Virus record (IMG/VR): IMGVR_UViG_2693429779_000006
Length of the DNA: 22,225 nt
From: a virus
Taxonomy: Duplodnaviria; Heunggongvirae; Uroviricota; Caudoviricetes
Reading direction: 5' to 3' (one strand)
Shown here: piece by piece, positions 1 to 22,225 of the stretch
Layout: every line of letters starts with the position of its first letter
How positions within the stretch are numbered: the first letter of the stretch is position 1
Notes under the pieces: generated by a model
The model's database searches: none
Told to the model about the DNA's origin: nothing
What the model saw: the letters and a program-made list of their open reading frames with translations, nothing else
Translations under genes and position numbers: made by a program

Positions 1-17
1 ATTACAACAACCATAAA

Positions 18-39
18 AAAAGCCCCATAAGGGGCTTTT
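18..39. terminator. Likely bidirectional rho-independent terminator downstream of the gene at 56..850
   Basis: Hairpin AAAAGCCCC-ATAA-GGGGCTTTT read directly, with an A-tract on the left and a T-tract on the right, so it could terminate transcripts from either strand. Confidence 0.5.
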
Positions 40-55
40 ATATATTTCATAACAC

Positions 56-850
56 TCATAGAATAGGAGAGTAAATTTCCACCTCAGGGTAATAAGCTCT
101 AAGGTAATTTATAAGACCTTCATAAGCATTAAGAAGAGATATTTTATGTGAAATCAAATCTTGTTCTATTATCAGTGCTTTATCGGATGGTAGCTCATCA
201 TAATTGAAATGACAAAGAAGATTATGATTCGCACCACCAAACACCTGAATGTTTCTATTATCGGAAATCGGCAAATGTCCAGATATGATAAAATCAATAT
301 TTTTATACGAATCAATAAAACTTTGGAAATGACCGTGGAGTAATTTATCATTTAAAGGATAGCTCGCTGGAAAATCCCTTAAAATACTATCAAACTGATC
401 TCCAAAAATAAGAAGATTGATGTGAAAAGAATTAGGTAAAGTTTCAACTAATGAACGTACCCTCGCAAACGGTGTAAAGTGGAAGTAAGCGTTTAAAAAG
501 TCCACATCTGACTGTCTTTTTTTATCTGAAAATAATGTATTATCGGTTGCACCCTGTATATAAGCCTCATGTTCACTTTTGATTTGATGCAATTTTTCTA
601 CTGTATAAGTGAATGGATCTCTATCAACAAGAATATGATCATTTGCACAAAGCAGGATAAGATTTTCATAAGAATTGTCATTTGCTAACAGGTCATCGCC
701 CCTTGGTCCTTTTGGGCTTTTGGCTATTACATGAGCCATTTGTCCGATGTGAACCTGCTCTTTAAAAAGAGAAGTTCGGCAAATATTACATTGCCCAGCG
801 GATAGTCCATACAATTTTTTTATTGCTGCTGTAGTAATTGCATCACTCAT
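56..850 (-). CDS. HNH endonuclease-motif protein with an uncharacterised C-terminal domain of about 170 aa
   Basis: N-terminal 75 aa contain C-N-I-C, then AHVIAKSPKGPRG, then ENLILLCANDH, which fits the HNH/His-Me finger layout of zinc ligands, catalytic His and conserved Asn. AGGA sits 8 nt upstream of the ATG. The C-terminal region has no motif I recognise. Confidence 0.55.
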   Translation of the reverse strand: MSDAITTAAIKKLYGLSAGQCNICRTSLFKEQVHIGQMAHVIAKSPKGPRGDDLLANDNSYENLILLCANDHILVDRDPFTYTVEKLHQIKSEHEAYIQGATDNTLFSDKKRQSDVDFLNAYFHFTPFARVRSLVETLPNSFHINLLIFGDQFDSILRDFPASYPLNDKLLHGHFQSFIDSYKNIDFIISGHLPISDNRNIQVFGGANHNLLCHFNYDELPSDKALIIEQDLISHKISLLNAYEGLINYLRAYYPEVEIYSPIL

Positions 851-910
851 AAATCAAATCCTTAGATTGCTATTTTATTAACTCAAAACACATATTAAAG
901 GAAAAATCTT

Positions 911-1204
911 TCAGCTTCCACCAACCATAATCAATAGCACTTGCAAAAGTTGTCCTAATGGAACTTGGATCACAATAATTCCAAAAGCATCAAGTACTGG
1001 TACTATGATCCAGTTATAGAGAATGATAAGGGTTAGTACAAAACCGAGGGCATTACGCCAGTGGAATGTTACCTTTTCAATCTCTTCTTTATTCGTTTCA
1101 ATCTGCCCTTCTACATTCGTTTTCTTTACTTCCTGTTCAATAGTTTTCTTCTTAATGAAAAAATCCAATCCTGACTTCAGAAACTCAATCAATATACTAA
1201 TCAT
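911..1204 (-). CDS. Small membrane protein with a charged N-terminal half and two predicted C-terminal TM helices
   Basis: Hydrophobic stretches ALGFVLTLIILYNWIIVPVL and GIIVIQVPLGQLLQVLLIMVGG at the C-terminus. Its start overlaps the stop of the upstream gene as ATGA. Confidence 0.45.
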   Translation of the reverse strand: MISILIEFLKSGLDFFIKKKTIEQEVKKTNVEGQIETNKEEIEKVTFHWRNALGFVLTLIILYNWIIVPVLDAFGIIVIQVPLGQLLQVLLIMVGGS

Positions 1205-1512
1205 TCAATAATCCCCACGGCATATACCCAAAAATGTTTACCCTTCACAAAGAGCTTTTTACTCTCAATTAGAAATACAGGCATCTTTTCACCCTGTAAT
1301 TCCCATTCAAGTACTTCACCAACTTTGAAATCTTTCTTCTTCTCATAAATAACGTTCATATAGCTATCAATCTGATAATTACTTTTCTTAACGACCTTTT
1401 GAAATTTCTTATCAAGAAAACATTTGTTAATTGGCATACTATTACCATCTGGTGTCATGCCATTTAGCTTAATCTTGCTTATTAAATCACCATAATGTTG
1501 CTCAAAATTCAT
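1201..1512 (-). CDS. Hypothetical protein, 103 aa, lysine-rich
   Basis: ORF with ATGA overlaps to both neighbours (1509-1512 and 1201-1204), indicating translational coupling. No recognisable motif. Confidence 0.45.
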   Translation of the reverse strand: MNFEQHYGDLISKIKLNGMTPDGNSMPINKCFLDKKFQKVVKKSNYQIDSYMNVIYEKKKDFKVGEVLEWELQGEKMPVFLIESKKLFVKGKHFWVYAVGIIE

Positions 1513-2087
1513 TGTCTACTTATCCTGAATGTTCCCTGAATACCGCTCATAATTACCCTTACACCATCATTGGCTTCCTTATAGAAGTCATAGATAAGGC
1601 GACGTTGTTTCTTCTCACGTAAGCCAATTACACGTTTGGTTTTCTTCTTGGTATCTTTCTTTGCGGTATCAATTAATCGTTCTTTACCATTCTTACCCTT
1701 CACTACCTTATATCGTTCACTTAAAAGATTCTTTTTCAGTCCTGAAATGTTGCCCTGCTTAGTTAATCTTGTAGATGAAGTAGGTATAAACTTATCAATT
1801 GCCTTTGGCTGTACCAGTACTTGATAAAGGTACTTAGCCTGAATATCTTTAACCATGATGGTCGATGTAACTGAATTTCTCCCAACCTTTCTATAGAAGA
1901 AAAGGATGGAACGTTGAGTAAAGCCCACTGCCCCACGGTCAACGCTATTATTCAAATCACCCTGCATTCTTTGGGATAGTAGCTTGGAACGTTTAATTAT
2001 TTCATTCTGGAATTGATTATTTAATCTAACTCCCTGCGTTTGTATATAGTTCCTTATACTACCAATCCCATTTATTCCACTTGCCAT
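1509..2087 (-). CDS. Basic (K/R-rich) hypothetical protein; possibly the separated DNA-binding part of a GIY-YIG endonuclease
   Basis: Lies in the same reading frame as the GIY-YIG ORF upstream, separated only by a TGA at 2097-2099 and three codons. Highly basic C-terminal half. Confidence 0.45.
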   Translation of the reverse strand: MASGINGIGSIRNYIQTQGVRLNNQFQNEIIKRSKLLSQRMQGDLNNSVDRGAVGFTQRSILFFYRKVGRNSVTSTIMVKDIQAKYLYQVLVQPKAIDKFIPTSSTRLTKQGNISGLKKNLLSERYKVVKGKNGKERLIDTAKKDTKKKTKRVIGLREKKQRRLIYDFYKEANDGVRVIMSGIQGTFRISRQ

Positions 2088-2096
2088 ATATTTACC

Positions 2097-2531
2097 TCAA
2101 TTCAAGTACTCCAATAGTTCCTGTACTATTCCGAGTAGTCTTTTTTTATCCTTTGCATTTGGTGATCTAATCTTACTCATCATTGCCAGATTCAAACATT
2201 CCGGTTTAAGCATCTGATGAAGGATCAGTATTGCCTCTACAATCATTACCTCTCGCATAGTTGCGAAGCACCATAGAATCGTTTTTGAGTACTGTTCACC
2301 ATTTTCAATTTTGTTTTTAACGACATTGGAACTACTGAGGTACTCACGCCAGCCATTTTCCTTTGAAGTGGGCTTTAGCTTTCTCGCATCCTTAACCCGC
2401 TGATAGATTTGCTTAGCACCGACATAATTAGAACCATCCTCAAACTGAAAGATATAAACGAAACCAGCATATTCACCGGATAACATTTCCTCCTCGCTCC
2501 AATCATCCGAGTATTTCCATTCACTCATCAT
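2097..2531 (-). CDS. GIY-YIG nuclease domain protein
   Basis: AGFVYIFQFEDGSNYVGAKQIYQRVKDAR matches the GIY...YIG...R core, with a downstream acidic residue in MREVMIVEAIL as the candidate catalytic Glu. AGGAA sits 6 nt upstream of the ATG. Confidence 0.55.
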   Translation of the reverse strand: MMSEWKYSDDWSEEEMLSGEYAGFVYIFQFEDGSNYVGAKQIYQRVKDARKLKPTSKENGWREYLSSSNVVKNKIENGEQYSKTILWCFATMREVMIVEAILILHQMLKPECLNLAMMSKIRSPNAKDKKRLLGIVQELLEYLN

Positions 2532-2538
2532 AAATATT

Positions 2539-2557
2539 CCTATAAATTCATTATAGG
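2539..2557. promoter_or_regulatory. Perfect 7-bp inverted repeat CCTATAA-N5-TTATAGG in the 36-bp divergent region between the GIY-YIG and lysozyme starts
   Basis: Read directly. Each half supplies an AGG Shine-Dalgarno-like element for one of the two divergent genes, so it may be an operator or an mRNA structure. Confidence 0.3.
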
Positions 2558-2567
2558 TATTTAGTAA

Positions 2568-3017
2568 ATGAGCGATTTAAAAACACGATTAAAAGAATAT
2601 GAAGGTACTAAAGAGTATCAGGCAAATTTGAAGTACTTCAGAAATGGGAAATTCTATCCATATGCTGATAGTTTAGGATGTAGTACTATTGGATATGGTC
2701 ACTTAATTCAGGCGGGAGAAGATTTTAGTACTGGCATTACTGAAAGCGAAGCAGACAAGTTACTATCTCGCGATTTAGCCAAAACAATTATGCAGGTACA
2801 GACATTAGGGTTAAATCTTCCCGATGACTGGAATGATTTTATTATTATCATGACCTTCCAGTTAGGTATTGGCGGGGTGAAGAAATTCCGTAAGATGTTA
2901 GCAGCCCTGAAAGCACATGATTACCTTGAAGCAATTAAACAGGCTAAGTGTTCTCTATGGTACAGGCAGACACCAAACCGTGTGAATTCCATGATTGCAG
3001 TACTTAAAAACAAATAA
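2568..3017 (+). CDS. GH24 (T4-type) lysozyme, putative endolysin
   Basis: Catalytic-region motifs in T4-lysozyme order: E in KEYEGT, D in PYADSLG, T in CSTIGYGH. No N-terminal hydrophobic signal or SAR segment. This is the only confidently coding plus-strand gene in the window. Confidence 0.8.
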   Translation: MSDLKTRLKEYEGTKEYQANLKYFRNGKFYPYADSLGCSTIGYGHLIQAGEDFSTGITESEADKLLSRDLAKTIMQVQTLGLNLPDDWNDFIIIMTFQLGIGGVKKFRKMLAALKAHDYLEAIKQAKCSLWYRQTPNRVNSMIAVLKNK

Positions 3018-3057
3018 AGAAAAGGCATAGTACGAATGACATACTATGCCTTTTTTT
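3016..3057. terminator. Bidirectional rho-independent terminator between the convergent lysozyme and 90-aa genes
   Basis: Stem GGCATAGTA / TACTATGCC with a 9-nt loop, preceded by AAAGAAAA and followed by TTTTTTT. Confidence 0.6.
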
Positions 3058-3328
3058 ATGGTCGTTGTTTCTGCTGAAGAATTGCAATAATCCTTTCAAT
3101 CTTAACATCAAGTTCATGGATTTGTGTTTCCAGTTTACTTAGTGTATCTCTCATCTTATCCTGATCATCCTCAATACGGGAAATACTACTTTCCAGTACA
3201 GCAATGGTAGTTTCAAGAGTAGCAACGCGAGTTAATAGATCATTCGTATCCTTTGTATTATCTCTAAAGATAGTATAAAGGAATACGCATCCAGAAATAA
3301 CAAGAGCTAAAATAGCACCGATATCCAT
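3056..3328 (-). CDS. Membrane-anchored coiled-coil protein; candidate lysis accessory (holin or i-spanin-like)
   Basis: N-terminal TM helix DIGAILALVISGCVFLYTIF followed by about 65 aa of heptad-like charged sequence. Convergent with the lysozyme gene. AAGGGA upstream of the ATG. Confidence 0.4.
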   Translation of the reverse strand: MDIGAILALVISGCVFLYTIFRDNTKDTNDLLTRVATLETTIAVLESSISRIEDDQDKMRDTLSKLETQIHELDVKIERIIAILQQKQRP

Positions 3329-3340
3329 ACTGAAATCCCT

Positions 3341-3385
3341 TTGTTGTTATTGTTATTGTTATTGTTATTGTTATTGTTATTGTAT
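3341..3385. repeat. Hexanucleotide simple sequence repeat, (TTGTTA)6 with degenerate flanking copies
   Basis: Six perfect TTGTTA units at 3344..3379 read directly, between the stop of the 218-aa gene (3385-3387) and the start of the 90-aa gene (3326-3328). It is out of frame with both genes. Confidence 0.9.
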
Positions 3386-4041
3386 TAATACCCTGTAAAT
3401 GTCGCCAATGCTATCTGGATACCATTATTCCCCATTGCCTGGCGGTAGGTTTTCTGGTTCTTTGAAACGTACTGTAGACTGAATGAAGTACTGGAATTAC
3501 GCCTGATAACCAGACCAGAGTACCCAATTACTGTACCATCATCTGATATGTTCCCCGGACATTGTGACCAGCAGAACCAGGGATCAGCTACTGGAGACGT
3601 TACCGTAATGGCAGTACTGAGATCGGTAGCCGCAGGTGCTGTCAAAAATCCCCTGATACGTGGCATTGTTGCCGCTGATGCAGCAGACCAGATTAAAGTA
3701 CCTTCTTCACTGAACACATCAAGAAAACCAGATGTGGGGGTAGCCGTGTGACTACTTGTCATGAACCTGCCCATGCCAGGCTGGAACATATAGGCACCAG
3801 GGAAACACCATGCCCCGTCTTTCTGTATCTGGAACCAGTACTGTGTTGTGTTCCTGTTAGCTACTACTGATGGCATAACGAAACCGAGCGATCCACCATT
3901 ACCGAAGGCACAGGTAAAGCCTGTGTAGTATCCCGTATCAGTTAGATTTCCCATGGCCTTTACTGCACCCGTCATTATCGACTTGTTAGTACTATCTATA
4001 GTCAGTGCACCCGCTGAATTATATACCTCGAAACCTGCCAT
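3385..4041 (-). CDS. Hypothetical protein downstream of the tail-tip gene, 218 aa
   Basis: Long ORF. N-terminus MAGFEVYNSAGALTIDSTNKSIMTG resembles the N-terminus of the adjacent 98-aa ORF. Gly/Ser/Thr-rich with several Cys and Trp. Confidence 0.5.
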   Translation of the reverse strand: MAGFEVYNSAGALTIDSTNKSIMTGAVKAMGNLTDTGYYTGFTCAFGNGGSLGFVMPSVVANRNTTQYWFQIQKDGAWCFPGAYMFQPGMGRFMTSSHTATPTSGFLDVFSEEGTLIWSAASAATMPRIRGFLTAPAATDLSTAITVTSPVADPWFCWSQCPGNISDDGTVIGYSGLVIRRNSSTSFSLQYVSKNQKTYRQAMGNNGIQIALATFTGY

Positions 4042-4042
4042 C

Positions 4043-4339
4043 TTACGCCGTCCACTTATATACGTTAAAAGTGTAGTTACCAGCTAACGGTGCATATGTT
4101 GGCAAATAAACCGCAGTAAATGACCCATTATTACAAAAGGCTGACCACTCATTAAAGGTATCACTGGCGGGGGCATAGTGTACAAACCAGCCTGTAGTTT
4201 TCATATTTGGTACTGATACAGTATAGGTCTGTGCAGAAGTAGCCTTGACAGTATAAGTACCCATAAAACGTATGTTATAATCAGTCAGATCTACTACTAA
4301 TACACCCGCTGCATTCCAACATTGTAATCCCTGTGCCAT
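4043..4339 (-). CDS. Hypothetical protein, 98 aa; short paralogue of the 218-aa neighbour
   Basis: N-terminus MAQGLQCWNAAGVLVVDLTDYNIRFMG parallels the neighbour. AGGAG sits about 8 nt upstream of the ATG. Confidence 0.5.
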   Translation of the reverse strand: MAQGLQCWNAAGVLVVDLTDYNIRFMGTYTVKATSAQTYTVSVPNMKTTGWFVHYAPASDTFNEWSAFCNNGSFTAVYLPTYAPLAGNYTFNVYKWTA

Positions 4340-4496
4340 AGCTCTTACTCCTGTAAATCCTTTTCTTCATTCCAATTGTTTCTTTTCCGCTAATACTGAA
4401 TGGGTTAGTACTGGTACTATTGAAAGTACGTTCATTAGATTTCATTTATGTATCCTTTTGAAATGAGGTTACAGTTAATAATCCCTGAATTATTTA

Positions 4497-8195
<3,699 letters not shown>

Positions 8196-9377: not shown

Positions 9378-9950
9378 TTGTTACCTCGAATATCTTCTTT
9401 CTTTATTTATTTAAAAACCTCGATTCGTATTTTTTTTAACAGGCTTGATTGGCAGGCTGCATCCGTCATCGTTGCTATGTTGTTATTTGCAGGCCAAATA
9501 GGCTATAACGCATATGATAAATGGAAAGAAAGTTCAGATGATGTTTTTAAGATGCGTGTAATCTTATTGAGCGAAATCAACAATAACCTTTTAGCTCTTG
9601 CTACTGGTGGCGATGAGTCTCAGGTGTTAGGCACATATGAAATATGTATTCCTCTTCCAACTGAAGATACAGAAGCTATTAAAAGAGTAGCAACTGCCGT
9701 TTCTTATTTGCATGATGATGTATATTATTCCCAATTAGAAAAATTAGCATCACTCCCAAAAAAAGAAGTAGATGCCATCGTAAAGAGTTATTATTCATTA
9801 TCGAGATTACGTACTCTTTCAACACAGCTTGCATACAATATTAAATACTCACCACCTAAAGTTAAATTATTGCGGGAAGAGTATTACAATCTCTATACCC
9901 TTTCATCTTCTCTTTCACAATATTTGTCTTATCACACGGAAAATCCCTAA
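9378..9950 (+). CDS. Opposite-strand insert (moron) in the tail operon: hypothetical protein with one predicted N-proximal TM helix
   Basis: A 190-codon open frame on the plus strand fills a 584-bp region that has no minus-strand ORF, in AT-rich DNA where long open frames are unlikely by chance. The track start is TTG; the first ATG is at 9477. TM candidate AASVIVAMLLFAGQIGYNAY. Confidence 0.4.
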   Translation: MLPRISSFFIYLKTSIRIFFNRLDWQAASVIVAMLLFAGQIGYNAYDKWKESSDDVFKMRVILLSEINNNLLALATGGDESQVLGTYEICIPLPTEDTEAIKRVATAVSYLHDDVYYSQLEKLASLPKKEVDAIVKSYYSLSRLRTLSTQLAYNIKYSPPKVKLLREEYYNLYTLSSSLSQYLSYHTENP

Positions 9951-9960
9951 CTGGGCTTTC

Positions 9961-12174
9961 TTATGTATTACGTTTTTGACTACTTCTCACAGCTTGAGAA
10001 ACACTATTGGCGTGTTTCTTAAGCATCTCATTAAATTTCTTGTCATCATCAGCTACATCACCCTGGATGATCAATGGTGCGTTAACGGTAATATCACCTG
10101 AAGTACTTCCACCTTCTTGTTTATCCAAGAATGCTGTTAATTTCTTATTCGCTTCAGGCTGCACCACTCTCTCGCCCTGCTTAAGTACAAATGATTTGTT
10201 GTCATAACTTGCTGGTAGTTCATCTACCCCGCCATGGAACTGACCAGCAGCAGCACCCTTTGCAGTACTAATAATCGACATACCAAGTGAAAGTACTTGT
10301 GCATAGTTTGCCAATGAAGCTGGCCAAGGGGTAGCGAGTGCTTGGGCCAATGCTGACTGAATTGAAAGTACTGTCTGTGCAATGCTTATGCTCTTACTTA
10401 GGGTAAATGCAGCTTGTGCAGCCCCACTACTTTCCCCAAACGCATCAACCATGCCCTGTGATAGTGACTGTGCAGTACTTGAGAAGATACTTAACTGATC
10501 CTGTGCATTCTGGTTACTGATTTGGATGGCCTGTGCATTGTACTTTGCCGTGATCTCAGCTTTACGTTTCTCATAGTCCTCATGGCCTTTCAGCAACAAC
10601 TCATTCTGCTGAAGTTCAGCATTCATAGCATCAGCGTTATCTTTCAACTTCTGATCGGTATCGTTATAGGCTAATGGATTACCACCATTGATACGCTGAT
10701 TCTGTTGCTGTGCCAGATACCCCTTCTGATTGTCATTGAGTAGACCGGAACCAATAAGAGCATTGGTATCTTTCAGACCCTGATTAGGATCTTGATAACC
10801 AACCATTGAATTCAGTAAATCAGTACGTTGTTTAGCACCATATGCAGTAGCGTTCTTTAGCATTTCATCAGGATTGATACCGAGTACTTGAGCACTATCG
10901 GTGATGGTTTTAAGAAGTGCCTTTTGTTGTCTGTCGAACTGCTGTAGACGTACCTGAAAACCATCTTCCCCAACTTGAGCAAGAGCAGCTTCCAGATTAC
11001 GTTGAGCCTGTAGGCGTTTTGCATCTGCCGCCTTTTGTGCCGCTTCTGCCTGTTTACGTTGTTGTTCTAACTTCTTCGCTGCATCTTCAGCTTCTTTTGC
11101 CTGATCAACCCATCCGCCAGTAGGAGCGGTAGCAACCGCAACATCGGACTTTAGGTTGTTTGCCAGTTCTTCTAAACGTGCCTTAGCCTGAGCGAACTCA
11201 TTACCCTTGTTGCCCTTATCATCCATGATGCCAGTATTGAGTGCTGCACCCTGGTAGTTTAATGCCCCTGCTGTACGTAATTTTTCCCAGATATCCAACA
11301 TATCCTGTAGAGAACCCTTGGAAGTTTTAATACGTTCATTCAGATCTTCAAACAAACCTGCCTCGTGAGGTTTTTGATTTGCAGCATCATAGACACTGTT
11401 CATGGCATTAACTAAAGGTGATAGGCCATCAGCAATAGTACCTTTAATGCTGGTAGTAAGTTTCCCAAGGTTTTTATCGAATTCAGCATATTTTTCAGCA
11501 GCATCATTAGTTACTTCAGCATTTTGTGACTGGATATAGGCTGTAGCTTGAGCCTCATTATTGAACTGCTGAAGAGTACTAATCATGTGGCTTGAGTCAC
11601 TGGCTAACGTTTCCATTACGTTAACTATTTCACTCTGTGATTTACCTGCATCACGCATGGCGTAAAAGGTGTGGATCACAGCCTGCATACCACCATCAGC
11701 CTGTTTTAAGTACTTGTTATAGTCCTGTAGGTTGAGTCCATATTCTTTAAGATCATCGGATACACCACCGCCAGCACGAAAAGCATCACCGAGCTTATCC
11801 AAGGTATCCTTGTTGAAATCACCAAACTTATCAATCTCAAGACCGAGGCCACTAAACGCCGCTGATAGCTGTTGTAACTGAACCACGGACAATCCGGTAC
11901 TCTTACTGATCTGGTTCATTTCACGCACATATTCACGTGATGATTCTACTAATGCTGCCAGGCCACCAATACCAATAGCCGCAGCACCCGCGATCCCGGT
12001 CATAGCAGTACCGAACCCGCCAGCCATACCAGTTATTCGGCCTGTGAACTCTTCAACAATGCCACCAGCAGTACTACCAAATTCCTCTAATGATTCAGTA
12101 CCAGACCTTAAAGCACGCTGTAAACCGGAAGAATCACCCGTAATATCTACACGTATTCTATTATTATTTGCCAT
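9961..12174 (-). CDS. Tail tape measure protein
   Basis: 737 aa, directly downstream of the G/GT chaperone pair. Gly/Ala-rich hydrophobic N-proximal segment, long Ala/Gln/Lys-rich helical regions, and a C-terminal region. Length implies a tail of roughly 110 nm at about 0.15 nm per residue. Confidence 0.8.
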   Translation of the reverse strand: MANNNRIRVDITGDSSGLQRALRSGTESLEEFGSTAGGIVEEFTGRITGMAGGFGTAMTGIAGAAAIGIGGLAALVESSREYVREMNQISKSTGLSVVQLQQLSAAFSGLGLEIDKFGDFNKDTLDKLGDAFRAGGGVSDDLKEYGLNLQDYNKYLKQADGGMQAVIHTFYAMRDAGKSQSEIVNVMETLASDSSHMISTLQQFNNEAQATAYIQSQNAEVTNDAAEKYAEFDKNLGKLTTSIKGTIADGLSPLVNAMNSVYDAANQKPHEAGLFEDLNERIKTSKGSLQDMLDIWEKLRTAGALNYQGAALNTGIMDDKGNKGNEFAQAKARLEELANNLKSDVAVATAPTGGWVDQAKEAEDAAKKLEQQRKQAEAAQKAADAKRLQAQRNLEAALAQVGEDGFQVRLQQFDRQQKALLKTITDSAQVLGINPDEMLKNATAYGAKQRTDLLNSMVGYQDPNQGLKDTNALIGSGLLNDNQKGYLAQQQNQRINGGNPLAYNDTDQKLKDNADAMNAELQQNELLLKGHEDYEKRKAEITAKYNAQAIQISNQNAQDQLSIFSSTAQSLSQGMVDAFGESSGAAQAAFTLSKSISIAQTVLSIQSALAQALATPWPASLANYAQVLSLGMSIISTAKGAAAGQFHGGVDELPASYDNKSFVLKQGERVVQPEANKKLTAFLDKQEGGSTSGDITVNAPLIIQGDVADDDKKFNEMLKKHANSVSQAVRSSQKRNT

Positions 12175-13441: not shown

Positions 13442-16093
13442 TTATTTATTATTTAATAGCTGTTGTACTAAATCTTTTAGCTGATTAATTTCTTCTTGTT
13501 GGGCTTGAATAGCTCCCATCAAGTCCATCACTATTGGATTTAAATCAACACGTGGATGATCACGAGTGACAATCTCCCCTTCTATTTCAACTGTTTCTTC
13601 ATCATGCTTAATGTACTGCGGAGCAGTCAACTCAGCATCTTCGGCGATAACACCAAACCTAACCCTTTCTTGTTCATCATCCTTGTAGATAAACGTTACT
13701 AAATCTTGTGACATTATCCGATCTAATGCTTCAACTGGATTTGCTGGAGTTATGTCTCTTTTAAACTCACGACCTGATGTACCTTGAGCTTGCATTACTA
13801 ACCATCCAAACCATGTTGTACCGTTCCCGCCTCGTACTCTTAAAGTACCACCACCGTCTATCTGAAGCTGAGAGCGATTTGCCCCTGGGTATCTTTGCAT
13901 GTGCAATAAAGGGGAATATTTTTCACTATAGTTAATACCTGAGTCACCTGGCCCTGCATACATACCGTTAAAGGTGATGGTATTGGCATCTGTCGGTCCC
14001 GAAACAGCGGTATTAGTCATCCATCCTGATTGAACATCAGTTAGGATCGTTCCAGTCGGCCCTTTTAGCCCCCATAGTTTATCCTCTGCACCATTTTCAG
14101 AAATAAAAAGGGTGAGATCAGCCTGTCCAGTCTGTCCCATCGTTTTACCAACCCGAAAACCACCAGATATTTCAGTTGATGTACCAATGTTGCATATCGA
14201 ACGAATACGCCCTCCAGTTACATAACTACCAATTGCCGTAGAGGAAGGGGAAGAAGCAATAACATCCCATTGAGGACTAACTGAAGTACGACTACTCAGC
14301 AAGTTTTCAACCCAGCGTTTGGTAGTCGCGTCAGAATCAGAGACAGGATCTCCTGCTAAAGAAGTTGCACCCGTAGGACGAATCGCAGGCCATAACTCAG
14401 CCTGAGTCTTAACACCAGTACCGCCCTGCGGAATTGCTAATGCTTTCCAGCCAGTGAAAGCACCCGCAATATATGTAGCTGAACCCCATTGCCCTCCATC
14501 ATAAACCACTAATGCAGCGGAAGAATCAGCGGATTTAATAGTTGTTAAATTACTACCTTGATTAAAGCGATCCACCTGAAAGTTTAGGCGAGCACTCAAA
14601 GCATCTGTAGCCCCTGTCCCCCCCTGACCTATACCTAAAGCAATCCATCCAGTACCAGTACTTGCACCCCATGCCCCGTTATCCTGAATTCGGATACGGT
14701 TAGTCAGGTCATTACTCATCAGATCGGTGTACGTAGCACCCTGAGTCAAACGGTTCACCTGTAGGTTAGTACGTGCTGTAGAGAGACTGGATAGATCAGA
14801 AAGGTTACTCGCTTTCTTCATGGAAGCGGAATCAAGGGAAGTAATACTGTCAGCTAAAGCCGTTACCTCTGCATCTACTTCATCCATTGAGTAAACAGCA
14901 AGGTTAATACGTGCTTCTTCCACGTCCCCCAGATCACTTAGATTACCTGCTATCGTAAGCTGGGCATCATCTGTAACCTTCCCTAAGCCAACATCAGTAC
15001 TGGTAAGTACTACATCCTCACTGAGTACATGACCGTTGACCATACGTGTATCAGGTACTGAACCTGTATCTTCACTACTCAGTACTACATTTTCACTAAG
15101 TACATGACCGTTCACTGTACGCGTGTCAGGTACTGAACCTGTATCTTCACTACTCAGTACTATATCTTCACTGAGTACATGACCATTAACTGTCCGTGTA
15201 TCTGGTACAGAGCCGGTATCAGTACTGGTAAGTACTACATCCTCACTTAGAGGCTTACCATTCACAGTACGTGTATCAGGTACTGAACCTGTATCTTCAC
15301 TGTTCAGTACTAAATTGGCCGTGAGTGCATGGCCGTTGATGGTACGTGTAAGGGGTACGTATCGCCCGTCCATCTGTGTAGCGGTATATATGCGTGTCCA
15401 GGCGGTTGTAGCGTTCTTTGCATAGATACTTAGAGTACCCGTCTTTGTCATCGCAAGAGAACTTACAGTAGTGCCATCTACAAGCCCTACTCCCATCAGA
15501 TCCGCCCCGGCAGGATTGCCTGCTTGAGATGATGGTACTTTGATGAAGCTGTTACCCGTAGGTACTGATGGTGAGTACTGAGGTACATCCGTAGTGTTCG
15601 AACCTAAACCGTAGTCCCCCTGATAGATTGGCGATAGTGCGTTAATGGTCATTGCACGTGCGATCACATCATGTGGGGCAAAACTGTATGCCTTGGTTAC
15701 TACTGAACCTTTATCACCGTCCAACTTATAAGAGGTGATATAACCATTCACCATCGCATAAGTAATGGTATTTTCATCCTTATTCATCTGGTACTGAATG
15801 ATGATCTGGAAAAGCTGCTGAGACTTAGCGGCATTATCCAAGAATTGATGTGTAGGATCATCAGGTAGGTAGTTAACTACAATATCAAATGGTGCTACTG
15901 ATTTATCAGATAGTAGTACTGTCCTGTAATCACTATCATACGTTTCAAAATTATTTGCTTCTGAATTTATTGTTAAGGTTGGAAAAGTATTAATCTGTTT
16001 AATTACTACATTGCCTGCTCCCTGTGGTGTTCTGTTACCAATATCAGCATTATACTGTACTGATAATTCTCTTCCTGAGAAAATATCACTCAT
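13442..16093 (-). CDS. Chimeric tail protein: tail-tube-like N-domain, tandem tail-fibre repeats and a C-terminal S74-type intramolecular chaperone domain
   Basis: aa 1-150 are paralogous to the 157-aa major tail protein. aa 249-368 hold five 25-aa repeats (TRTVNGHVLSEDVVLSSEDTGSVPD). The C-terminus reads FKRDITP...ALDRIMSQDLVTFIYKDD...RFGVIAEDAELTAP, resembling the self-cleaving chaperone domain of tail fibres and tailspikes, and ends in a coiled coil. Confidence 0.65.
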   Translation of the reverse strand: MSDIFSGRELSVQYNADIGNRTPQGAGNVVIKQINTFPTLTINSEANNFETYDSDYRTVLLSDKSVAPFDIVVNYLPDDPTHQFLDNAAKSQQLFQIIIQYQMNKDENTITYAMVNGYITSYKLDGDKGSVVTKAYSFAPHDVIARAMTINALSPIYQGDYGLGSNTTDVPQYSPSVPTGNSFIKVPSSQAGNPAGADLMGVGLVDGTTVSSLAMTKTGTLSIYAKNATTAWTRIYTATQMDGRYVPLTRTINGHALTANLVLNSEDTGSVPDTRTVNGKPLSEDVVLTSTDTGSVPDTRTVNGHVLSEDIVLSSEDTGSVPDTRTVNGHVLSENVVLSSEDTGSVPDTRMVNGHVLSEDVVLTSTDVGLGKVTDDAQLTIAGNLSDLGDVEEARINLAVYSMDEVDAEVTALADSITSLDSASMKKASNLSDLSSLSTARTNLQVNRLTQGATYTDLMSNDLTNRIRIQDNGAWGASTGTGWIALGIGQGGTGATDALSARLNFQVDRFNQGSNLTTIKSADSSAALVVYDGGQWGSATYIAGAFTGWKALAIPQGGTGVKTQAELWPAIRPTGATSLAGDPVSDSDATTKRWVENLLSSRTSVSPQWDVIASSPSSTAIGSYVTGGRIRSICNIGTSTEISGGFRVGKTMGQTGQADLTLFISENGAEDKLWGLKGPTGTILTDVQSGWMTNTAVSGPTDANTITFNGMYAGPGDSGINYSEKYSPLLHMQRYPGANRSQLQIDGGGTLRVRGGNGTTWFGWLVMQAQGTSGREFKRDITPANPVEALDRIMSQDLVTFIYKDDEQERVRFGVIAEDAELTAPQYIKHDEETVEIEGEIVTRDHPRVDLNPIVMDLMGAIQAQQEEINQLKDLVQQLLNNK
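14990..15349 (-). repeat. Tandem 75-bp coding repeats (about 5 copies) inside the 883-aa gene
   Basis: Near-identical DNA units are visible directly, for example ...tcactgagtacatgaccgtt...acgtgtatcaggtactgaacctgtatcttcactactcagtact..., each encoding one 25-aa repeat. Confidence 0.85.
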
Positions 16094-16841: not shown

Positions 16842-22183
<5,342 letters not shown>

Positions 22184-22225
22184 CTAGACTGGCCCCCTGA
22201 ATCTCCAGACAACCAGTATCACTTA

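Follow-up and report, generated by a model that had tools for sequence, protein, structure and literature searches.

The viral record IMGVR_UViG_2693429779_000006 (Caudoviricetes) is a stretch of 22,225 nucleotides (nt), referred to here as the window, in which nearly all real genes are minus-strand genes that make up the late region of a prophage of the siphovirus type. Beyond the tail genes, a gene encoding a T4-type lysozyme, LYS149, is found on the plus strand. The genes and signals around it are listed in the order of their coordinates.

911-1204, minus strand: hol97, candidate 3TM-type holin of 97 amino acids (aa) with a PF11351 match and transmembrane (TM) segments; 1.4 kb from the lysozyme gene
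1201-1512, minus strand: p103, no family matches
1509-2087, minus strand: p192, basic protein (isoelectric point 10.8) without a Pfam family, possibly a tail or neck component
2097-2531, minus strand: GIY144, SegE-like protein with a GIY-YIG nuclease domain (PF19835, 60.7 bits, cut-off 25)
2529-2567, no strand: palindromic control region with two opposed boxes and both ribosome-binding sites
2530-2536, plus strand: ATAAATA box facing the lysozyme gene
2559-2565, minus strand: CTAAATA box, reverse-facing
2568-3017, plus strand: LYS149, soluble T4-type (GH24) lysozyme of 149 aa with an ATG start, putative endolysin
3020-3054, both strands: bidirectional hairpin terminator with a 15-bp stem, common to the lysozyme and 90-aa genes
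3056-3328, minus strand: TMCC90, protein with an N-terminal TM anchor and a coiled coil; its gene closes the tail operon, and it may be an accessory to lysis

LYS149 matched the Pfam family PF00959 (Phage_lysozyme) with 45.7 bits, against a cut-off of 22.3. A phmmer search of the PDB retrieved the lysozyme domain of T4 gp5, which was the best match, and T4 lysozyme, with E-values of about 1e-11. Residues Glu12, Asp34 and Thr40 are invariant among thirteen relatives, whose lysozymes range down to 58% identity. Asp34 and Thr40 align with Asp20 and Thr26 of T4 lysozyme in BLASTP, and Glu12, which is followed by a 13-residue insertion, was placed by its YEG/DEG motif as the probable counterpart of Glu11. 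The hydropathy profile of LYS149 contains no hydrophobic segment, and so neither a signal nor a signal-anchor-release (SAR) sequence, in agreement with an earlier sequence-only reading of this DNA that described a GH24 lysozyme lacking both. An enzyme without such a segment would be soluble and need a holin. LYS149 also carries the sole peptidoglycan-hydrolase domain recognised in the element, and by elimination it is probably the endolysin.

Both neighbours of the lysozyme gene lie on the minus strand. The GIY-YIG gene is divergent, with a gap of 36-39 bp, and the 90-aa gene is convergent. The earlier description of a lysozyme alone on the plus strand is thus correct in that no neighbour is co-oriented; the gene is alone only locally, as a second plus-strand gene is present at 9378-9950.

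The module was compared with relatives from 16 viral contigs, with lysozymes 58-94% identical to LYS149, and from 15 genomes. In about 40 relatives from Enterobacterales, the order TMCC90, lysozyme, GIY-YIG, p192, p103 and hol97 is kept, and the lysozyme gene alone switches strand. It is inverted, as in the window, in the 16 viral contigs and in a dozen genomes, including those of Pseudescherichia, Phytobacter, Enterobacter, Buttiauxella, Kluyvera, Pseudocitrobacter and others. Co-oriented lysozyme genes were found in prophages of Mangrovibacter plantisponsor (L107), Serratia proteamaculans (L109) and Yersinia pekkanenii (L114). In these three, the gene for the TM anchor and coiled coil (TM-coil gene) is followed by a terminator, the lysozyme gene and then a GIY-YIG gene starting about 4 nt past the lysozyme stop codon; lysozyme is the first gene of the operon and the holin the last. 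In Leclercia, p192 and p103 have moved together to the tail side, apart from the lysis genes. The TM-coil gene, the inverted lysozyme gene, the GIY-YIG gene and the holin gene stay together there, which marks these four as the core unit.

These gene orders indicate that the lysozyme open reading frame (ORF) was turned round within its locus at least once during the history of the lineage, and the lone lysozyme gene would result from a single-gene inversion and not from a scattered cassette. The suggestion of a dispersed or non-canonical lysis cassette, made in the sequence-only reading, needs revision as to dispersal, because the genes form a 2.4-kb module of fixed order in which only lysozyme is flipped, and three relatives are fully co-oriented. 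A switch of the Hin/Gin/Cin type was also considered and rejected: no meaningful inverted repeats flanking the lysozyme segment were found, and a single orientation was present at all ten Shigella sonnei-type places read and in all viral contigs, down to 58% lysozyme identity.

The hairpin between the convergent lysozyme and TMCC90 genes folds strongly on both strands, with -19.1 kcal/mol (z -6.1) on the plus strand and -22.2 kcal/mol (z -7.5) on the minus strand. A U-run flanks it on each side, and together with the 15-bp stem these values substantiate the shared bidirectional terminator that had been proposed from the letters of the DNA. Every relative possesses a hairpin at the same position between the TMCC and lysozyme genes, with a different sequence. 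Another terminator, beyond the gene at 56-850, lies at 18-39.

All 28 distinct relatives have a TAAATA box, usually ATAAATA and often TATAAATA, at 24-42 nt before the start codon of lysozyme, in either orientation of the gene. In the co-oriented relatives the box comes after the terminator. In relatives with the inverted gene, the start codons of lysozyme and GIY-YIG are 36-39 bp apart, and this gap is a palindrome with a second, reverse-facing box at a similar distance upstream of the GIY-YIG gene. This reverse box was detected by script in 22 of the 25 inverted relatives and by eye in the other three, as a copy running into the ATG; none of the three co-oriented relatives possesses it. In S. 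sonnei 53G and most relatives, the small terminase gene is preceded at 25 nt by the same box, which in the full-length contig L039 (lysozyme 94% identical) also precedes the opening gene of the early-side operon. From this distribution we infer that the box is a promoter-like element of the lineage and that the palindrome acts as an opposed promoter pair. The palindrome was also considered as an RNA hairpin hiding the ribosome-binding site of lysozyme. This was discarded in favour of two opposed boxes, as the consensus fold reached -2.5 kcal/mol with one compensatory pair, and the co-oriented relatives lack the second arm. The consensus of T4 late promoters is TATAAATA. Its resemblance to the box is a lead only.

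Contig L039 has a cluster of four ATAAATA boxes (1637-1828) in a non-coding region of 660 bp, which separates the partial terminal ORF (32-1201) from the early-side operon and its first small gene. This cluster could be a regulatory region.

The candidate holin hol97 matched PF11351 (GTA_holin_3TM) with 25.0 bits, against a cut-off of 24.8, over profile positions 40-116 of 123, and phrog_3427, annotated as holin, with an E-value of 2e-4. The C-terminal part of the protein has two strong TM segments and the N-terminal part an amphipathic segment or helix, and many of its relatives are named 3TM-type holin in NCBI and UniRef. In all relatives hol97 is the last conserved gene of the module and lies at most 1.4 kb from lysozyme. 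A tblastn search of hol97 against phage records gave no match. As the only protein of the module with an above-threshold match to a holin family, hol97 is the best candidate and likely the holin. The sequence-only reading had left the choice between the 90-aa and the 97-aa membrane protein; the family match and the names of its relatives speak for the latter, whereas the predicted topology of the 90-aa protein (N-out/C-in) and the terminator between its gene and lysozyme speak against the former.

The RcGTA protein rcc00556 is a tested holin of the PF11351 family. Another member, TeaA of phage ICP1, has been characterised as the holin of that phage (PMC7182436). Similar to these two proteins, hol97 matches the family profile, is of similar small size and is linked to an endolysin; in contrast to them, it does so at the threshold only, and many members of its clade fall under it.

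Two allelic types of the hol97 gene, approximately 40-45% identical, are swapped between otherwise near-identical prophages and do not track the neighbouring genes. In contig L013 (holin at 2970-3260), p103 and p192 are 96-98% identical to those of the window while the holin is only 45% identical, which points to recombination at the p103/holin junction.

The explanation that we favour, and consider somewhat more probable than not, is that LYS149 is the cytoplasmic endolysin of a prophage whose late region ends in a compact lysis module. The element, which carries lambda-type terminase and portal genes, would be a lambda-like siphovirus-type prophage of about 35 kb, from an uncultured lineage widespread in Enterobacterales. 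The window holds a copy of it that lies next to mipA in Shigella sonnei and is damaged by insertion sequences. During lysis, hol97 would accumulate in the inner membrane and then open it, and the folded soluble muramidase would pass through the hol97 holes to the cell wall and degrade it. A segment of about 0.5 kb, comprising the lysozyme ORF and its upstream TAAATA box, would have been flipped at its site on one or more occasions. In the co-oriented form, the tail operon would stop at the terminator after TMCC90, and the box would then start an operon of lysozyme, GIY-YIG, p192, p103 and hol97. In the inverted form, that same terminator would end both convergent genes, and the opposed boxes would drive lysozyme in one direction and GIY-YIG, p192, p103 and hol97 in the other.

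Read in this way, the module is a holin-endolysin system of the ordinary kind, and its layout, although unusual, can be explained. It resembles canonical lysis by a holin and a soluble muramidase (lambda S/R type, with the T4 gene e lysozyme as homologue of the enzyme) in three respects: a GH24 muramidase of the cytoplasm that has the T4-type Glu/Asp/Thr triad and lacks an export signal, its presumed dependence on a nearby small membrane protein, and a location in late-expressed DNA. It differs from the lambda type in that three unrelated genes separate endolysin and holin, the two are not co-directional, the endolysin gene is on the opposite strand in most relatives, and no spanin of the Rz/Rz1 type was found. 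Scattered lysis genes, with endolysin and holin non-adjacent and in separate transcription units, are found in T4, T7 and P1. Similar to these phages, the endolysin and holin genes described here are non-adjacent and separately transcribed; in contrast to them, they lie within 2.4 kb in a fixed order and are split by one local inversion. A single local inversion would thus account for the odd lone lysozyme, and the case calls for caution when strand switches are interpreted in the annotation of prophages. Nature provides the module in both a co-oriented and an inverted version, which allows comparison, and the lineage offers a testable marginal PF11351 holin, a protein similar to Mu gp25 outside Mu-like phages, and a palindromic control region with a TATAAATA-like box.

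An earlier point to be considered was whether a canonical holin-endolysin-spanin cassette lies elsewhere in the genome. In S. sonnei 53G, the genes that lie between the insertion sequence (IS) elements and the small terminase were examined, as was a 35.6-kb viral contig (lysozyme 94% identical), which was followed from the variable end almost to the opposite one. No lysozyme, holin or spanin family was recognised in either, and with them no such cassette; the structural genes likewise showed no further muralytic or lysis family. The partial ORF at the far end of the contig (L039, 32-1201) looked like a serine recombinase on reading and was not scanned against any family library. Small membrane protein and lipoprotein genes upstream of the small terminase in 53G were considered as a hidden lysis cassette and dismissed, since they had no family matches and are present in only 1-27 of 65 related loci, as expected for accessory genes.

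Several observations weigh against the favoured explanation. The assignment of hol97 as holin rests on a score only 0.2 bits over the cut-off, and its relatives in L107, L109, L115 and L013 fall below the PF11351 cut-off. The ATAAATA motif is AT-rich and not enriched across the window (10 copies found, 9.4 expected), so that only the position of the box relative to genes is informative, and several of the copies between genes fall where stop codons occur in runs. Midpoint-rooted neighbour-joining trees of lysozyme and of the GIY-YIG protein group the co-oriented trio with the inverted copy of Leclercia, and in consequence these trees leave the direction and number of inversions unset. No spanin could be identified, which leaves the disruption of the outer membrane unexplained and makes the lineage a candidate for studying other routes of outer-membrane breaching. 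Finally, the module may no longer act in this host, a point that bears on the first of the alternative explanations.

The module could be only a relic here, in a defective prophage whose genes are still intact through recent clonal descent; this is compatible with the explanation given above, and we regard it as a tentative possibility that deserves some weight. The large terminase gene lacks approximately 146 N-terminal codons, as an IS element at the end of the window cuts the gene, and the final 60 or so bases of the window (region 20684-22225) are the end of this IS element. In S. sonnei 53G, the lost terminase fragment was found across the IS, on its other side. The tail-tip gene, TMCC90 and further sites are interrupted by IS insertions in other S. 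sonnei assemblies, and with the cut terminase these insertions mark this copy as a decaying prophage. The exact LYS149 protein was found in 747 blocks of the assembly collection, and all chromosomal places read with it share the same S. sonnei-type context beside mipA-yeaD-gapA (e.g. strain 53G, HE616528.1). This uniform mipA context fits clonal spread. Against a mere relic stand the ORFs of the module, which are all intact in the window, and the regulatory signals, which match those of apparently intact relatives.

The role of TMCC90 offers a second alternative, in which this protein would be the holin, or an essential co-holin, with a single TM domain, and hol97 an antiholin or an unrelated membrane protein. 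TMCC90 contains one TM segment, at about residues 3-22, and then a coiled coil of about 65 aa. Its gene always adjoins lysozyme, including in the Leclercia locus where other genes are rearranged, and in the co-oriented relatives it is directly upstream of lysozyme, which is the classical position of a holin. This fixed place suggests a role related to lysis. TMCC90 also showed weak matches to the lysis-associated families phrog_739 (2.7e-5) and XhlA, to TIGR03495 LysB (0.02) and, through its relatives, to DUF2730. These matches are all sub-threshold and mostly in the coiled coil, whereas hol97 alone scores above the threshold of a holin family; moreover, a terminator separates the TMCC and lysozyme genes in every relative. 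A tblastn search of TMCC90 against phage records gave no match. We consider it improbable that TMCC90 is the holin. More plausibly, it is a membrane-tethered protein with a probably cytoplasmic coiled coil, which may modulate lysis, and it is probably neither holin nor spanin.

A possible comparison for such a modulator is Mu gp25, a DUF2730 protein described as releasin; proteins of this family are also paired with non-SAR endolysins (PMC9239132). Similar to Mu gp25 (DUF2730, PF10805), TMCC90 is a protein of about 90-100 aa with an N-terminal TM anchor and a predicted N-out/C-in topology that would make its helical domain cytoplasmic, and its gene adjoins the endolysin gene, as gp25-type genes lie within a few genes of theirs. 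The element differs in not being Mu-like, and LYS149 has no SAR domain to release. TMCC90 itself had no DUF2730 match among the matches listed (cut-off 24.9 bits), while Mu gp25 scored 50.4 bits. Within the TMCC family, DUF2730 matches were found for six of the thirteen close relatives at E<=0.01 and for two of the 45 broad members at E<=0.001; the best member reached about 5e-5, below the Pfam cut-off. The comparison of the TMCC family with Mu gp25 by hhalign gave a probability of 18-36%, and the precomputed tables hold weak DUF2730 listings for the family. None of the four tests provided statistical support for membership of TMCC90 in DUF2730 (scores under the cut-off, low hhalign probability).

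The spacer directly upstream of the TMCC90 gene contains a perfect hexanucleotide repeat, TTGTTA, at 3344-3383 (6.7 copies by TRF). Six perfect copies are present in the window and 5 to 10 across otherwise identical S. sonnei assemblies, and the repeat is not present in relatives outside Shigella. It could serve strain typing and might affect the translation of TMCC90.

A third alternative joins four parts, namely promoters, antisense transcription, the TMCC90 family and the GIY-YIG protein, into a distinct design of lysis control. The two opposed, overlapping box promoters in the 39-bp palindrome would make transcription of the endolysin and of the holin operon compete, and transcripts running on past the end of the tail operon would be antisense to the endolysin. 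In this design, TMCC90 would represent a non-Mu family of membrane-tethered cytoplasmic regulators of a 3TM holin or soluble endolysin, and the GIY-YIG protein, never missing from the module, would have been domesticated as part of it and not be a homing endonuclease. As a joint proposal we find it doubtful.

Regarding the last of these parts, the GIY144 gene is found beside lysozyme in nearly all relatives, and the tree of the GIY-YIG protein matches that of lysozyme. Similar to free-standing homing endonucleases of the Seg type, GIY144 has the GIY-YIG catalytic domain; unlike them, it is not sporadic and shows no separate DNA-binding domain, and its co-evolution with lysozyme is unusual for a homing endonuclease. 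A second domain was not detected in the family scan of its 144 aa. In contigs L014 and L015, the gene carries an in-frame deletion of residues 19-105 approximately, with both gene ends kept, and these retained ends carry signals of the neighbouring genes.

It is very unlikely that TMCC90 is an inner-membrane spanin (i-spanin) whose outer-membrane partner is missing or unrecognised. An N-terminal TM segment followed by a coiled coil and the weak matches to the Rz-like phrog_739 and LysB models would fit such a protein. Nevertheless, lysine and arginine are much richer after than before the TM helix in 42 of the 45 members of the TMCC family, and by the positive-inside rule TMCC90 is predicted to be N-out/C-in. 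Its coiled coil would then be cytoplasmic, unlike that of an i-spanin. With 90 aa, the protein is also short for an i-spanin. Cys14, inside the TM helix, is not conserved among relatives, which have no conserved cysteine, and TMCC90 is consequently not a lipoprotein. In window positions 1-4600, apart from that cysteine in the TM helix, no lipobox ORF embedded in, overlapping or adjoining TMCC90 was found. The predicted cytoplasmic coiled coil and the lack of an outer-membrane (o-spanin) lipoprotein ORF in this region also distinguish TMCC90 from two-component spanins (Rz/Rz1).

We give hardly any credence to LYS149 being a muramidase of the virion, or one with some other special task, in a phage that lyses its host in another way. 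In favour of this, jumbo phages have the sequences nearest to LYS149 (about 47% identity), as C-terminal lysozyme domains of their baseplate-hub proteins, its best PHROG is annotated as baseplate hub subunit and tail lysozyme, and the lysozyme domain of T4 gp5 gave its best PDB match. Against it, LYS149 is a bare catalytic domain of 149 aa with no structural domain, is transcribed apart from the tail operon and opens the holin-ending operon in the co-oriented relatives, and no other endolysin candidate was recognised in the element.

Among the remaining genes of the module, p192, p103 and hol97 are joined by ATGA start-stop overlaps, indicating translational coupling. The p192 family is confined to this prophage lineage. 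The AlphaFold model of p192 had a predicted local distance difference test (pLDDT) score of 64 and gave weak matches to tail components similar to HK97 gp10; with a low-confidence model and weak matches, the assignment of a firm function from structure prediction was dropped.

Next to hol97, at 56-850 on the minus strand, a protein of 264 aa is encoded, with an N-terminal HNH domain of the defence type that resembles CBASS SAVED-HNH effectors and PDC-M68A (4e-23). This slot downstream of the holin gene varies among relatives and carries defence-like genes. In other relatives (L026, 917-2206; L013, 1388-2305), it is occupied by a PDC-S20 KAP NTPase (6e-85) and an LmuA-like protein.

The remaining late genes of the window precede the module in the following transcription order.

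20684-22144, minus strand: large terminase (GpA type), the first of the late genes
after the large terminase, minus strand: portal, then a protease-capsid fusion
13442-16093, minus strand: long fibre-like protein of 883 aa, then the tail tube
9961-12174, minus strand: tape measure, after the tail tube
4497-7799, minus strand: J-like protein of 1100 aa, the end of the tail-tip genes, then two small tail-associated genes and the module

A near-identity DNA search against cultured phages retrieved none, and the closest match of the capsid protein was 30% identical. In the complete genomes of E. coli searched, the element was absent and IS ends alone were matched.

The second lone plus-strand gene, at 9378-9950, encodes a protein of 190 aa with one weak TM segment and no family match. 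Its neighbours are the tape-measure gene on one side and the first of the tail-tip genes on the other, and it is present in some relatives only. An ATAAATA box lies inside this gene, 28 nt upstream of the next tail gene.

The fibre-like protein encoded at 13442-16093 on the minus strand is homologous to the tail tube protein over its N-terminal 140 aa, approximately (29-33% identity). Its middle part contains four to five repeats of 25 aa, corresponding to a 75-bp tandem repeat at 15006-15350, and its C-terminus a Peptidase_S74 chaperone domain. The protein looks like a fusion of a tube protein and a fibre.

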